In this document: positions 12,001 through 18,000 of the stretch, one piece after another
Layout of the letters: each line of letters starts with the position of its first letter
Position numbering within the stretch: position 1 is the first letter of the stretch
Assembly: GCF_054482525.1 (NCBI RefSeq)
Contig: NZ_CM137006.1
Reading direction: 5' to 3' (one strand)
DNA length: 64,000 nt
Position numbers: made by a program

Positions 12001-15000
12001 CTGAAAGGCGCTGGAGGACGTCGTCAGGTAAGGCTAATTTCATTACCAGCAAAGGGCTGTTAGAAGATCCCTCTTCAGCGTTTAACAGTAAGCTGGTCAT
12101 GGCGACAGTGCGCAGTCACGATCAGTACAATACGACGATTTATGGTATGGATGATCGCTATCGAGGGGTATTCGGTCAACGAGATGTGGTCTTTATGAGT
12201 GCTAAACAAGCTAAAATTTGCCGTGTGAAAAACGGCGAAAGAGTTAATCTTATTGCGCTCACGCCAGACGGTAAGCGCAGCTCACGCCGCATGGATAGAT
12301 TAAAAGTGGTCATTTACCCTATGGCTGACCGCTCACTGGTGACCTATTTTCCAGAATCGAATCACATGCTAACACTTGATAACCACGATCCATTAAGTGG
12401 CATTCCTGGCTATAAAAGTATTCCGGTTGAATTAGAACCATCAAATTAATTCGCCTCCTCATTTCTTCTGCTGTCATCCGCACAGCAGAAGAATTCCTCA
12501 TTGACCATTGTCGCGCAATTTACTCACATGTGCTAAATTAAACTGCTCGCTATAAGATATATACCTCCGCCTACAGCTGTAAGAAACTCCGCTCAGTACT
12601 GAAGCGCCAATCCTATTTCCTCTTTTCTCCAGCCTGTTATATTAAGCATACTGATTAACGATGCTTAACGTTATTCGCTTAATAAACACATTTGAAATGC
12701 ATGCGACCATAGTGAAAAATAAAATCACGCAAAGAGACAACTATAAAGAGATCATGTTTGTAATTGTGGTTGTCTTATTATTGACACTTACGTTGATAGC
12801 CATTTTTTCGGCGATTGATCAGCTGGGTATTTCAGGAATGGGTCGCATTGCAAGAGATATTACACATTTCATTATCAATAGTTTGCAAGACTGAAAATAA
12901 ACAGCAAATTATAAATATGAGATGTTAAAAATGTATCGATAAAAACTTTATTGTTTTAAGGAGATAAAATGTCGCTCGTTTGTTCTGTTATATTTATTCA
13001 TCATGCCTTCAACGCTAACATTTTAGATAAAGATTACGCCTTCTCTGACGGCGAGATCCTGATGGTAGATAACGCTGTTCGTACGCATTTTGAACCTTAT
13101 GAGCGGCATTTCAAAGAAATCGGATTTAATGAAAACACCATTAAAAAATATCTACAATGCACTAACATTCAGACAGTGACGGTGCCTGTTCCTGCGAAGT
13201 TTTTACGTGCTTCAAATGTACCGACTGGATTGCTTAATGAAATGATTGCTTATCTCAACTCGGAAGAACGCAATCATCATAATTTTTCAGAACTTTTGCT
13301 TTTTTCCTGCCTGTCTATTTTTGCCGCATGCAAAGGTTTCATTACACTATTAACTAACGGTGTGCTATCCGTTTCCGGGAAAGTGAGAAATATTGTCAAT
13401 ATGAAGCTGGCGCACCCATGGAAACTGAAAGATATTTGTGACTGCCTGTACATCAGTGAAAGCCTGCTCAAGAAAAAACTAAAGCAAGAGCAAACGACAT
13501 TCTCACAGATTCTTTTAGATGCCAGAATGCAGCACGCAAAAAATTTGATACGCGTAGAAGGTTCAGTCAATAAAATTGCCGAGCAATGTGGTTATGCCAG
13601 TACATCTTATTTTATTTATGCGTTCCGCAAACATTTCGGCAACAGTCCGAAGAGAGTTTCTAAGGAGTACCGTTGTCAAAGGCACACGGGAATAAATACG
13701 GGCAACACGATGAATGCTTTAGCTATTTGATTATTTGCTAACGAGTAGTCAACCACGCACCCTACGTAAAAATTAAAACGGGGCAGCCATTCCCTGCCCC
13801 GCGTTGTTTTCAGGCGATATATTTTCATGAGATAAATAAGTGACAGCCGTCACATATTTATGCATTTGCATAACTTGTTGCATGATTATTTATGATCTCA
13901 ATTCTGAATTTTGTCAGTAAAATATAATATATTATTAAATATCAATGGATTAGATGTTTATCAGCGAGAAATTACTTAGTAGAACAGAAAGTAATGTCAA
14001 CGCTTTATGGACTGTTATTTCCCTTTTTTTAGCTAAATCTGCTATCTCTTTATGTGACTAACTTCACTTACATCCACTTATTTCTCTTCGTAAAATTACT
14101 TTGGAATTAAGTACAATAAGAAGAGGAACATTTATGAAGTCTGCATTAAAGAAAAGTGTCGTAAGTACCTCGATATCTTTGATACTGGCATCTGGTATGG
14201 CTGCATTTGCTGCTCATGCGGCAGATGATGTAAAGCTGAAAGCAACCAAAACAAACGTTGCTTTCTCAGACTTTACGCCGACTGAATACAGTACCAAGGG
14301 AAAGCCAAATATTATCGTACTGACTATGGATGATCTTGGTTATGGACAACTTCCTTTTGATAAGGAATCTTTTGACCCAAAAACAATGGAAAATCGTGAA
14401 GTTGTCGATACCTACAAAATAGGGATAGATAAAGCCATTGAAGCTGCGCAAAAATCAACGCCGACGCTCCTTTCATTAATGGATGAAGGCGTACGTTTTA
14501 CTAACGGCTATGTGGCGCACGGTGTTTCCGGCCCCTCCCGCGCCGCAATAATGACCGGTCGAGCGCCCGCCCGCTTTGGTGTCTATTCCAATACCGATGC
14601 TCAGGATGGTATTCCGCTAACAGAAACTTTCTTGCCTGAATTATTCCAGAATCATGGTTATTACACTGCAGCAGTAGGTAAATGGCACTTGTCAAAAATC
14701 AGTAATGTGCCGGTACCGGAAGATAAACAAACGCGTGACTATCATGACAACTTCACCACATTTTCTGCGGAAGAATGGCAACCGCAAAACCGTGGCTTTG
14801 ATTACTTTATGGGATTCCACGCTGCAGGAACGGCATATTACAACTCCCCTTCACTGTTCAAAAACCGTGAACGCGTCCCCGCAAAAGGTTATATTAGCGA
14901 TCAGTTAACCGATGAGGCAATTGGCGTTGTTGATCGTGCCAAAACACTTGACCAGCCTTTTATGCTTTACCTGGCTTATAATGCTCCGCATCTGCCAAAT

Positions 15001-18000
15001 GATAATCCTGCACCGGAGCAATATCAGAAGCAATTTAATACCGGTAGTCAAACAGCAGATAACTACTACGCTTCCGTTTATTCTGTTGATCAGGGTGTAA
15101 AACGCATTCTCGAACAACTGAAGAAAAACGGACAGTATGACAATACAATTATTCTCTTTACCTCCGATAATGGTGCGGTTATCGATGGTCCTCTGCCGCT
15201 GAACGGGGCGCAAAAAGGCTATAAGAGTCAGACCTATCCTGGCGGTACTCACACCCCAATGTTTATGTGGTGGAAAGGAAAACTTCAACCCGGTAATTAT
15301 GACAAGCTGATTTCCGCAATGGATTTCTACCCGACAGCTCTTGATGCAGCCGATATCAGCATTCCAAAAGACCTTAAGCTGGATGGCGTTTCCTTGCTGC
15401 CCTGGTTGCAAGATAAGAAACAAGGTGAGCCACATAAAAATCTGACCTGGATAACCTCTTATTCTCACTGGTTTGATGAGGAAAATATTCCCTTCTGGGA
15501 TAATTACCACAAATTTGTCCGCCATCAGTCAGACGATTACCCGCATAACCCCAACACCGAAGATTTAAGCCAATTCTCTTATACGGTGAGAAATAACGAT
15601 TATTCGCTAGTCTATACAGTAGAAAACAATCAGTTAGGTCTCTACAAACTGACGGATCTACAGCAAAAAGATAACCTTGCCGCCGCCAATCCGCAGGTCG
15701 TTAAAGAGATGCAAGGCGTGGTAAGAGAGTTTATCGACAGCAGCCAACCACCGCTTAGCGAGGTAAATCAGGAGAAGTTTAACAATATCAAGAAAGCACT
15801 AAGCGAAGCGAAATAACTAAACCTTCATGCGGCGGATTTTTCCGCCGCCTTATTGAGCGAGATAGCGATGCACGTTACAGCCAAGCCCTCCAGTTTTCAA
15901 TGTAATCTCAAATGTGATTACTGTTTTTATCTTGAAAAAGAGTCGCAGTTTACTCATGAAAAATGGATGGATGACAGCACTCTGAAAGAGTTCATCAAAC
16001 AATATATCGCAGCGTCTGGCAATCAGGTCTATTTTACCTGGCAAGGCGGTGAACCCACTCTGGCTGGCCTGGATTTTTTCCGTAAAGTTATTCACTATCA
16101 ACAACGCTATGCAGGCCAAAAACGTATTTTTAATGCATTACAAACGAATGGCATTTTATTGAATAATGAATGGTGTGCCTTTCTCAAAGAACATGAGTTT
16201 TTGGTTGGTATCTCGATCGATGGACCCCAGGAGCTACATGACCGTTACAGACGCAGTAATTCAGGTAACGGTACTTTTGCAAAAGTGATAGCAGCCATCG
16301 AGCGTCTGAAATCATATCAAGTAGAGTTTAATACGTTAACCGTCATTAATAACGTTAATGTCCATTACCCTCTTGAGGTTTATCATTTTTTAAAATCTAT
16401 CGGCAGTAAACATATGCAATTTATCGAATTGCTCGAAACCGGGACGCCGAATATTGATTTCAGTGGTCATAGTGAGAACACATTCCGTATCATTGATTTT
16501 TCTGTGCCTCCCACGGCTTATGGCAAGTTTATGTCAACCATTTTTATGCAATGGGTTAAAAACGATGTGGGTGAAATTTTCATCCGTCAGTTTGAAAGCT
16601 TTGTCAGCCGTTTTTTGGGGAATGGGCATACCAGTTGTATTTTCCAGGAATCCTGCAAGGATAATCTGGTTGTTGAAAGTAATGGAGATATTTACGAATG
16701 CGACCATTTTGTCTATCCACAGTACAAAATTGGAAACATTAATAAATCTGAACTCAAAACGATGAACAGTGTTCAACTGACAGCGCAAAAAAAACGGATT
16801 TCCGCGAAATGTCAGCAATGTGCATATAAACCTATCTGCAATGGCGGTTGTCCTAAGCATCGTATTACTAAAGTAAACAATGAGACTGTTTCCTATTTTT
16901 GTGAAGGTTATAAAATCCTTTTTTCAACCATGGTGCCTTATATGAACGCCATGGTGGAGTTAGCTAAGAACAGAGTACCGCTTTACCACATCATGAATGT
17001 TGCAAGACAAATGGAGAATAATTAATAACGCTCCCTCTTAGCTCCAGTCTTAGCCTCCTTCTTATGACCTTAACAAGGCACCCGACATAAATTCCTGTCG
17101 GGTGTTTCGTCATCATCATCTTCCCTTGCGAAAATCCTGGCTTACGTGGTATTCGTCAGGGTATTAGCAATATCCTTGATTATCAATAGTATAACCATAA
17201 CTACTGAAAATGAAGTATTTCTTTATATTTCATATTGTTAAATGATACTTAAATAAATTTCATCAGTAAATCATTGCCATAGATAATCATTGGATGGCAC
17301 AATCAATTTTCGCTAATGATAACCATTCCCATTACGTTTCGTATGTTGATAGCAAAGTATCTCTGTCTGCTGAAGCCCTTTTGGCTGCGTAAGAATAATA
17401 AAACTTCAGTGCTGTTAATCATTATTATCCTCGCCATGATCCTTGGCGTTGTTAAAATTCAGGTCTGGTTAAACGACTGGAATAATGATTTTTTCAATGC
17501 GCTAAGCCAGAAAGAAACCGATAAGCTTTGGCAGCTTGTTCTTTGGTTCCCTGCCCTGCTGGGGATCTTTGTATTAATATCTGTAAACAAAACATGGTTA
17601 ATTAAACTACTGACTATTCGCTGGCGCGAATGGTTAACAGATTACTACCTTAATCGCTGGTTTGCAGATAAAAACTACTACTTCACGCAAATCTACGGCG
17701 AGCATAAAAATACAGATAACCCTGACCAACGTATCGCTGAGGACATTCTCTTACTGATCAGTAAAACGCTCAACCTTTCATTTGGCTTCATCCAGTCGCT
17801 TAGCATGCTTATCACCTTTACCGTTATTCTTTGGCAAAGCGCGGGTACGCTCTCATTCACTGTTGGTGGAACAGAATGGAATATCCAGGGGTATATGGTC
17901 TATACCGTCGTGCTCATTGTGATCGGTGGAACTTTATTTACTCATAAGGTTGGTAAACGTATTCGTCCGCTTAATGTGGAAAAACAACGTAGCGAAGCGA

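Follow-up and report, generated by a model that had tools for sequence, protein, structure and literature searches.

ydeN-ydeM of Escherichia coli as a predicted Ser-type sulfatase and anaerobic sulfatase maturase pair

The atsBA locus of Klebsiella pneumoniae, as is predicted for ydeN-ydeM of Escherichia coli, encodes a Ser-type periplasmic sulfatase (AtsA) adjoining a radical-SAM maturase (AtsB). AtsA requires coexpression of AtsB in E. coli, which would imply that during aerobic growth in the laboratory the chromosomal ydeM gene is either silent or inactive. AtsB contains three [4Fe-4S] clusters and converts serine to formylglycine by abstracting a C-beta hydrogen (PMC10114670). AtsB and YdeM belong to the same equivalog family, whereas the order of the genes in ydeN-ydeM, sulfatase then maturase, is unlike that of atsBA. 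YdeN is also not an arylsulfatase of the AtsA type, as judged by comparison with the Pseudomonas arylsulfatase 1hdh, which matched the N-terminal half of YdeN only (E = 6e-15), versus 1e-50 for carbohydrate sulfatases. The anSME of Clostridium perfringens (PDB 4k36 to 4k39) shares with YdeM the CxxxCxxC motif, the eight auxiliary cysteines with their spacing, and the conserved Asp following the third Aux I cysteine, but its natural client is a sulfatase of the Cys type and the neighbor of YdeM is of the Ser type. E. coli harbors a second pair of this kind, aslA-aslB, comprising a sulfatase and an anSME homologue at a separate locus outside the window analyzed here; aslB and ydeM have been treated jointly as the two putative anSMEs of E. 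coli (PMC8379841).

The best solved relatives of YdeN are the endo-4S-carrageenan sulfatases of SulfAtlas subfamily S1_19 (6b0j, 6bia, and 9hh2/9hh3; E = 1e-50 to 4e-52), with which it shares the xGPSRxAIxTGR, GKWHL, YNAPH, and SDNG motifs. Identity to the best of these is 35%, with 19% gaps and large insertions and deletions. The S1_19 enzymes are of the Cys type (9hh3), act on marine algal polysaccharides, and are encoded in polysaccharide utilization loci, whereas YdeN is of the Ser type, contains highly conserved, family-specific insertions at residues 78 to 108 and about 186 to 215, differs in its C-terminal region, and is encoded in a bare two-gene cassette of gut and aquatic facultative anaerobes. 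YdeN is not filed here under S1_19, even though its nearest relatives in the PDB are found there.

The window, a stretch of 64,000 nucleotides (RefSeq assembly GCF_054482525.1, contig NZ_CM137006.1), is E. coli chromosomal DNA and is 100% identical to PCN033 across the stretch compared, positions 12500 to 17400. Both the ORF list and the annotation that RefSeq gives for the identical sequence of strain PCN033 place ydeN and ydeM on the + strand exactly where a first-pass annotation, made from the sequence alone, had located a sulfatase and its maturase (14134-17025). The features of the locus are collected in the table. The ydeM gene starts 51 nucleotides downstream of ydeN, which is itself preceded by a good Shine-Dalgarno sequence (AGAGGA, 8 nucleotides before the ATG) and by a weak sigma-70-like match detected by a scan at 14067-14096. 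The pairing is already published and annotated in RefSeq, which names the products "sulfatase-like hydrolase/transferase" (YdeN) and "anaerobic sulfatase maturase" (YdeM), and it has been discussed as a putative sulfatase/maturase pair since 1998; its recognition here is not a discovery and adds nothing new. The substrate and physiological role of YdeN are of interest. Of 5426 complete E. coli genomes, 5397 (99%) contain the locus, the sulfatase is under very strong purifying selection, and published work connects it with growth in the gut and the bladder. Identification of the substrate would clarify how gut bacteria other than Bacteroides use sulfated compounds from the host or the diet.

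Table. Features of the ydeN-ydeM locus (positions in the window)
Feature	Position	Strand	Basis or remark
ydeO terminator-like hairpin	13779-13801		Terminator scan; precedes the ydeN upstream region
ydeN upstream regulatory region, AT-rich	13802-14133	+	GC 37-38%
ydeN, 560-aa S1 (formylglycine-dependent) sulfatase precursor	14134-15816	+	ORF, RefSeq, Pfam
Predicted Sec signal peptide, YdeN residues 1-29 (MKSALKKS...AAFAAHA, then ADD)	14134-14220	+	Translation
S132-G-P-S-R136, Ser-type formylglycine signature of YdeN	14527-14541	+	Translation, alignment, orthologues
GC-rich hairpin GCGGCGGA-TTTT-TCCGCCGC between ydeN and ydeM	15829-15848	+	RNA fold, covariation
ydeM, 385-aa radical-SAM/SPASM anaerobic sulfatase-maturating enzyme	15868-17025	+	TIGR03942, PDB 4k36, RefSeq
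C12-x3-C16-x2-C19 (CNLKCDYC, YdeM residues 12-19), radical-SAM [4Fe-4S] motif	15901-15924	+	Translation
Eight auxiliary-cluster cysteines and D279 of YdeM	16636-16902	+	Translation, spacing versus anSMEcpe
Hairpin ACCCGACA-(8 nt)-TGTCGGGT, then GTTTCG	17080-17103	+	Read from the sequence; 55 nt past the ydeM stop

YdeN matched the Pfam Sulfatase profile PF00884 over its full length (profile positions 1 to 301 of 301; E = 2e-70; 237.9 bits for a cutoff of 25). The SGPSR pentapeptide, which had been proposed to be a Ser-type sulfatase signature, is directly followed by AAIMTGR and aligns column for column with CGPSR in the wild-type S1_19 sulfatase structure 9hh3, as well as with SGPSR in the related entry 9hh2. 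These alignments within the PF00884 domain indicate that SGPSR occupies the formylglycine position and is not a chance pentapeptide, in agreement with the proposal. Ser132 is the residue predicted to be oxidized to formylglycine. The residue was serine in each of the 118 close homologues in which this region is retained, and the entire signature was invariant in 13 YdeN orthologues. The same 13 sequences showed no variation at D66, D67, K183, H185, H286, D345, N346, and K364, which fall in the canonical DDLG, GKWH, APH, SDNG, and KGxK motifs. YdeN thus holds the catalytic residue set of S1 sulfatases, i.e., Asp/Asp/Asp/Asn for metal binding and Lys/His/His/Lys for sulfate binding, roles that we assume by reference to human arylsulfatase A. 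A periplasmic location is predicted from the N terminus of the protein, in which inspection by eye recognized a basic n-region followed by a hydrophobic core, with A-H-A ahead of the putative cleavage site; the region has no twin-arginine (RR) motif, and export would involve a Sec signal peptide. The Ka/Ks ratio of ydeN versus Escherichia albertii was 0.016, indicating strong purifying selection.

YdeM matched the "anaerobic sulfatase maturase" equivalog TIGR03942 over profile positions 1 to 362 of 363 (505 bits; cutoff, 349.45) and the solved anSME 4k36 over residues 4 to 359 (E = 4e-63). Scores were below the cutoffs for the clostridial-type equivalog NF010321 (256 bits versus 441) and for the 412-position equivalog NF010308 (360 bits versus 484), which may be an AslB-type model. 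The Pfam Radical_SAM (E = 2e-22) and SPASM (27.7 bits versus a cutoff of 21.5; residues 264 to 318) families were also matched. The CxxxCxxC motif noticed in the first-pass annotation corresponds to C12, C16, and C19, and the cysteines that it had called SPASM-like match in spacing all eight auxiliary ligands of anSMEcpe: alignment paired C257, C263, C278, and C328 with C255, C261, C276, and C330 of Aux I and paired C315, C318, C324, and C345 with C317, C320, C326, and C348 of Aux II (ligand list from PMC5682303). All of these cluster ligands, together with G60-G61-E62 and the Asp adjacent to C278, were invariant in 22 YdeM orthologues. GGE is a SAM-binding motif. The ydeM gene is under strong purifying selection (Ka/Ks of 0.04 to 0.07; 0.041 versus E. 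albertii). Homology supports the assignment of YdeM as an anaerobic sulfatase maturase.

The association of the two genes was maintained across genera. Every YdeN orthologue of at least 68% identity with readable downstream DNA was directly followed by a YdeM orthologue, forming a strict two-gene cassette at approximately 25 loci. These loci come from roughly 12 genera and have unrelated surroundings, among them an integrative element in Salmonella and IS-flanked DNA of Aeromonas. The clade so defined is separated from the next relative found, which displays 41% identity. At more distant sulfatase loci, a maturase was present within 6 kb in only 2 of 57 cases. Adjacency to a maturase is not obligatory for sulfatases of the ydeN type, since 114 E. 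coli genomes carry an accessory YdeN paralogue without a maturase of its own. Homology and synteny thus support the pairing of a Ser-type sulfatase with a radical-SAM maturase that had been inferred from the window. The literature searched contained no demonstration that YdeM modifies YdeN and no report of formylglycine in YdeN, of sulfatase activity of YdeN, or of activity of YdeM on any substrate.

The alternatives to a dedicated pair concern the breadth of YdeM, its necessity, and the identity of either protein. YdeM could serve as the anaerobic maturase of every E. coli sulfatase, the Cys-type enzymes AslA and YidJ as well as the accessory paralogue of YdeN among them, with the adjacency of ydeN reflecting coinheritance only. 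The accessory paralogue would indeed need a maturase in trans, enzymes of the anSME family modify either cysteine or serine (PMC5682303), and the activation of heterologous human sulfatases by overexpressed E. coli AslB (PMC11215262) indicates that the class is promiscuous. We nevertheless regard this possibility as rather unlikely, because the strict cassette found at every orthologue locus points to YdeN as the main client, and it extends the dedicated-pair reading rather than excluding it. Less probable is a dispensable YdeM, with YdeN being active enough with an unmodified Ser132 or matured by another route. A choline sulfatase is said to have been characterized in its unmodified form, and a genetic study of ydeM by Benjdia in 2007 reportedly concerned, and proposed, a third maturation system in E. 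coli. For a metagenomic S1 sulfatase of the Ser type, activity was reported both upon production in E. coli and in vitro, with no obvious or known maturase (PMC8379841), and the dependence of YdeN on YdeM can therefore not be assumed. Against dispensability, the purifying selection acting on ydeM, the invariance of its cluster ligands, and its universal colocation with ydeN would be difficult to explain.

Assignment of YdeN to another branch of the alkaline phosphatase superfamily, e.g., the phosphonate-monoester hydrolases or the phosphodiesterases, is very improbable. Weak matches to Pfam Phosphodiest and DUF229, the cautious RefSeq name, and the fact that YdeN reached no NCBIfam sulfatase equivalog (best score, 124 bits versus a cutoff of 481) would be compatible with such an enzyme, but the full-length match to the Sulfatase profile, the complete S1 catalytic set with its formylglycine signature, and the presence of a dedicated sulfatase maturase argue otherwise, as do the top 60 PDB matches, all of which are sulfatases, the best being carbohydrate sulfatases. 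We give least credence to YdeM acting as a RiPP-type radical-SAM/SPASM enzyme on a small peptide, with a sulfatase as a coincidental neighbor. YdeM does match the models of DynA, DarW, DarE, YhhB, and other SPASM peptide maturases, but far under their cutoffs (219 bits versus 450 for DynA), whereas it passes the anSME equivalog (505 versus 349); furthermore, no small precursor ORF was conserved with the cassette across genera, and the partner of YdeM was always a Ser-type sulfatase. Membership of YdeM among the RiPP peptide maturases is accordingly disfavored.

We favor, with a probability of about 0.8, the reading in which ydeN-ydeM is an operon of two genes, under the control of its own regulated promoter, that encodes a Ser-type sulfatase of the periplasm and a cytoplasmic enzyme dedicated to its activation. 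Given the oxygen lability of the radical-SAM activator, the system should function under anaerobic, gut-like conditions. On the model of the homologous AtsB and anSME, the mechanism of which has been described (PMC10114670 and PMC5682303), YdeM would bind the still-unfolded YdeN precursor near S132-G-P-S-R-AAIMTGR and reductively cleave SAM at the [4Fe-4S] cluster coordinated by C12, C16, and C19. The 5'-deoxyadenosyl radical would take the C-beta hydrogen from Ser132, and an electron would exit via the two auxiliary clusters, leading to C-alpha-formylglycine. The modified precursor would then be exported by Sec and its signal peptide cut after Ala29. In the enzyme, D66, D67, D345, and N346 are predicted to hold a divalent metal, and the formylglycine hydrate would attack a sulfate ester gripped by K183, H185, H286, and K364. 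The earlier description of the pair as self-contained holds for these specific components but not for the reaction as a whole, which still requires SAM, an electron donor, Fe-S assembly, and Sec export.

Published data bear on the regulation of the locus. Cotranscription of ydeN and ydeM has been described, and ydeMN expression was high in a ΔaraC strain (PMC10878103). AraC binding upstream of ydeN was seen only with arabinose (PMC3738151); our scan of the ydeN upstream region with the AraC consensus did not locate the site. GadX represses ydeN (PMC4918353). In mice fed a diet high in microbiota-accessible carbohydrates (MAC), gut expression of ydeM was increased, alongside that of galP and nagABE (PMC10878103). 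The YdeN protein was detected in O157 grown in anaerobic rumen fluid culture (PMC3936929), and ydeM is among the fitness genes identified in mouse cystitis (PMC8767336).

Our best guess for the substrate of YdeN is a small sulfated sugar entering through porins, as suggested by the nearest relatives of the enzyme and by the absence of an outer membrane glycan importer. This guess is weak, because no sulfatase equivalog was reached and even the best solved relative shares just 35% identity. A broader proposal, which we offer tentatively and consider somewhat less probable than not, is that of a horizontally mobile two-gene cassette, with a Ser-type sulfatase clade of its own and an attenuator hairpin setting a high sulfatase-to-maturase ratio, that serves in cross-feeding on small sulfated sugars. 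If this were true, the substrate would be a sulfated sugar of host or dietary origin freed by primary glycan degraders, and the cassette would provide facultative anaerobes, E. coli included, with a cross-feeding route linked to signals of arabinose (AraC) and acid stress (GadX).

The hairpin downstream of ydeM is a possible operon terminator, which the terminator scan did not call because of its weak T-run. The intercistronic hairpin, which begins 12 nucleotides past the ydeN stop codon and ends 19 nucleotides ahead of the ydeM ATG, had no match in Rfam and is apparently a small regulatory detail without earlier description. Its role is probably that of a leaky terminator or of a stabilizer of the mRNA, and it would probably lower expression of the maturase relative to that of the sulfatase. 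Its predicted folding energy is about -16 kcal/mol, and equivalent hairpins are present in the ydeN-ydeM spacers of other genera. In an alignment of 12 genera, compensatory changes were observed at 10 of the 10 pairs and 89.9% of the cells were paired; register-shifted controls were 41 to 66% paired, and none of 500 shuffles matched the observed values.

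The segment spanning positions 12500 to 17400 of the window was 100% identical to E. coli PCN033 (NZ_CP006632.1) and was present in 5397 of the 5426 complete E. coli genomes. As annotated by RefSeq for this matching stretch, the genes run in the order ydeP, safA, ydeO, ydeN, ydeM, yddA, yddB, pqqL, and the coordinates proposed for ydeN and ydeM in the first-pass annotation were exact according to both this annotation and the ORF list. The GC content across ydeN-ydeM is 38 to 48%, lower than in flanking ydeP. A 40-residue hypothetical protein annotated by RefSeq on the opposite strand (16991-17113, -) shares the final 35 nucleotides of ydeM and reaches into the ydeM-yddA spacer. 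The sulfatase/maturase pair itself is already known, being annotated under these names in RefSeq and treated as such in published work, including a 1998 computational analysis; the hairpin and the tight, mobile YdeN clade described below are modest additions.

Coordinates of the ydeN-ydeM features in the window
Feature	Position	Strand	Description
ydeN	14134-15816	+	560 aa; ORF list and RefSeq annotation
ydeM	15868-17025	+	385 aa; ORF list and RefSeq annotation
Intercistronic hairpin	15829-15848	+	GCGGCGGA-TTTT-TCCGCCGC; ~-16 kcal/mol; within the 51-nt ydeN-ydeM spacer

YdeN matches the Pfam Sulfatase domain model from end to end (E = 2e-70). Residues 132 to 136 are SGPSR (window 14527-14541), followed by AAIMTGR, and superpose in the HMMER alignment on CGPSR of the wild-type S1_19 sulfatase 9hh3 and on SGPSR of the related 9hh2, indicating that this is a formylglycine signature rather than a chance pentapeptide. 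The Pfam match and the alignment thus bear out the Ser-type signature originally read from the sequence. The remaining S1 catalytic set (D66/D67, K183/H185, H286, D345/N346, and K364) is present and invariant in 13 of 13 orthologues, and the nucleophile position is occupied by Ser in all 118 close homologues retaining the region. Judged from the sequence, the N-terminal segment MKSALKKS...AAFAAHA, followed by ADD, is a predicted Sec signal peptide.

YdeM contains C12-x3-C16-x2-C19 (window 15901-15924), a GGE motif, and eight additional cysteines spaced like the ligands of Aux I (C255/261/276/330) and Aux II (C317/320/326/348) in the anSME of Clostridium perfringens (PMC5682303). Both Pfam Radical_SAM and SPASM match the protein. 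The translation, the anSME spacing, and the two Pfam matches together confirm the CxxxCxxC motif and SPASM-like cysteines previously noted. YdeM passes TIGR03942, the NCBI equivalog model for anaerobic sulfatase maturases, with 505 bits for a cutoff of 349, and its nearest solved relative is anSME 4k36 (E = 4e-63). Across 22 YdeM orthologues, there is no variation at any of the 11 cluster cysteines, in the GGE motif, or at D279.

On the basis of homology to AtsB, the Klebsiella maturase of the Ser-type sulfatase AtsA, and to anSME (PMC10114670, PMC5682303), we infer the following chemistry, sequence of events, and compartments. YdeM would act in the cytoplasm upon unfolded pre-YdeN, generating from SAM a 5'-deoxyadenosyl radical that would take the C-beta hydrogen of Ser132, with the electron leaving via the auxiliary clusters to give formylglycine. 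The modified precursor would then be exported by Sec and fold around a metal ion, and the formylglycine hydrate would split a sulfate ester in the periplasm. The description of the system as self-contained holds with a qualification, as the cell provides SAM, reductant, Fe-S cluster assembly, and Sec.

Close YdeN homologues (70 to 84% identity in the protein search) occur in Leminorella, Salmonella, Citrobacter, Yersinia, Proteus, Aeromonas, Shewanella, Iodobacter, and Anaerobiospirillum. When one genome per species was scanned, orthologues showed at least 68% identity, the next match 41%, and the remainder 31% or less; because of this gap, the YdeN orthologues form a tight, separate clade. 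Synteny was directly observed: wherever the DNA downstream of a YdeN orthologue is readable, a YdeM orthologue lies immediately next, on the same strand, a count covering ~25 loci in about a dozen genera, whereas a maturase lies within 6 kb at 2 of 57 more distant sulfatase loci. Homology and synteny therefore both support the proposed pairing of a Ser-type sulfatase with a radical-SAM maturase, which was correct. The flanks are specific to each genus: Yersinia, for example, has an ABC transporter, Aeromonas carries IS elements, and Salmonella has an integrase/TraI element. The pair appears to behave as a mobile, self-sufficient cassette. Ka/Ks values relative to E. albertii were 0.016 for ydeN and 0.041 for ydeM; judging from these comparisons, selection maintains both genes and neither is decaying. 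YdeN is consistently better conserved than YdeM (84% versus 70% in Leminorella and 72% versus 52% in Anaerobiospirillum). One contig (L010, JARKOR010000108.1), designated a 'Candidatus Nanosynbacter' metagenome-assembled genome, carries ydeN and ydeM 99 to 100% identical to those of E. coli and is almost certainly a binning contaminant.

Two alternatives concern the identity of the proteins and are disfavoured. YdeN as a non-sulfatase is at odds with its full-length Pfam match and with its best solved relatives, which are sulfatases. YdeM as a peptide maturase is opposed by the NCBIfam searches, in which every peptide-maturase model scored it far under cutoff while TIGR03942 was passed.

Two others concern the exclusivity of the partnership. 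YdeN might be active with no need of YdeM, as published precedents exist (PMC8379841 and PMC6189696), but this is hard to reconcile with selection and synteny. YdeM may also serve other sulfatases, which fits an accessory island of 114 E. coli genomes composed of a porin gene and a YdeN paralogue without a maturase of its own. This second Ser-type paralogue (L004:2615-5544 and L005, two loci with the island) has 565 residues, is 77% identical to YdeN, and is located directly 3' of the porin gene and 5' of IS110 remnants. Of 5426 complete genomes, 114 carry it, 13 of the copies being plasmid-borne, and the search for a maturase remnant beside it returned none even at E = 10.

The intercistronic hairpin is GC-rich; it begins 12 nucleotides past the ydeN stop codon and ends 19 nucleotides ahead of the ydeM ATG, leaving the ydeM ribosome-binding site outside the stem. 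In other genera, a hairpin of different sequence occupies the equivalent position of the spacer; position and structure are conserved and sequence is not. A MAFFT alignment covering 12 genera showed compensatory double changes at 10 of 10 predicted pairs and 89.9% paired cells. None of 500 column shuffles attained these figures, and in register-shifted controls 41 to 66% of cells were paired. The stem is followed by a T-run in several genera (TTTTTGAGG in Leminorella, TTTTTGGAG in Grimontia, and TAATTTTT in Salmonella) and by the weaker CTTATTGAG in E. coli. From these features, the hairpin is likeliest a leaky intrinsic terminator or a 3'-end stabiliser, which would favor production of the sulfatase over the maturase. 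An Rfam search of 12400-17400 with E up to 1 returned two sub-threshold chance matches only; the hairpin therefore belongs to no known RNA family. Since the E. coli sequence ATGCGGCG...CGCCTTAT resembles the REP core, a REP element was considered; it was rejected, as the outer REP arms are lacking and the hairpin found at this site in other genera differs in sequence. No mention of this hairpin was found in the accessible literature.

ydeN and ydeM are co-transcribed, AraC targets ydeN directly, and ydeMN expression is high in a ΔaraC strain (PMC10878103). In mice fed a diet high in microbiota-accessible carbohydrates, ydeM was up in the gut alongside galP and nagABE, leading the authors to speculate on an involvement in mucin use (PMC10878103). 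Only in the presence of arabinose does AraC bind upstream of ydeN (PMC3738151). Scanning 13731-14133 for the classical AraC half-site TAGC-N7-TCCATA gave at best 7 of 10 positions, which does not exceed the window background, and did not locate the published site. A strong hairpin immediately 3' of ydeO (13779-13801), with T-runs on both strands, looks like a bidirectional terminator between ydeO and the ydeN promoter region. ydeN is repressed by GadX (PMC4918353). The sulfonated dye FD&C Red 40 induced ydeN and no other gene, and reduction of the dye does not require ydeN (PMC10653809). The YdeN protein was detected in O157 cultured in rumen fluid under anaerobic conditions (PMC3936929), and ydeM is among the fitness genes of UTI89 in mouse cystitis (PMC8767336). 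AslB and YdeM are described as the two putative anSMEs of E. coli, and a third system is suspected (PMC8379841, citing Benjdia 2007).

No report of a YdeN substrate, of its formylglycine content, or of YdeM activity was found in the accessible literature. YdeN passes none of the substrate-specific NCBIfam sulfatase models, and this route to the substrate was rejected, the arylsulfatase, choline sulfatase, PehA, and Mn-arylsulfatase models scoring far under their cutoffs. The best solved relatives are carbohydrate sulfatases (S1_19 acting on 4S-carrageenan, then S1_7, S1_16, GalNAc-6-sulfatase, and mucin-desulfating enzymes); the match to the classical Pseudomonas arylsulfatase is weak. At 35% identity and 19% gaps to the best structure, the S1_19 structures were rejected as a guide, and by sequence comparison a substrate cannot be transferred from these relatives. 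Two conserved insertions, residues 78 to 108 and ~186 to 215 (window 14365-14457 and ~14689-14778), are near-invariant in the YdeN clade (e.g., VVDTYKIGIDKAIEAAKKSTPTL) and missing from the nearest solved sulfatases; they could shape the substrate site. Gene neighbors were also rejected as a guide, because the flanks differ in each genus. A porin gene precedes the Aeromonas locus as well as the paralogue of the E. coli accessory island; this is a weak clue, the two being general porins with only 32% identity.

Elsewhere in the window, the PCN033 annotation places between osmC and ddpF (~39570-46340) a cluster encoding CoA transferase subunits A and B, a thiolase, 3-hydroxyacyl-CoA and 3-hydroxybutyrate dehydrogenases, a GntP permease, and a LysR regulator; this cluster is not known from K-12. 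At ~1356-2514, the same annotation shows that hipB is intact and hipA is reduced to an N-terminal fragment adjoining a frameshifted ISNCY transposase remnant, indicating that the HipBA toxin-antitoxin pair is broken in this strain.
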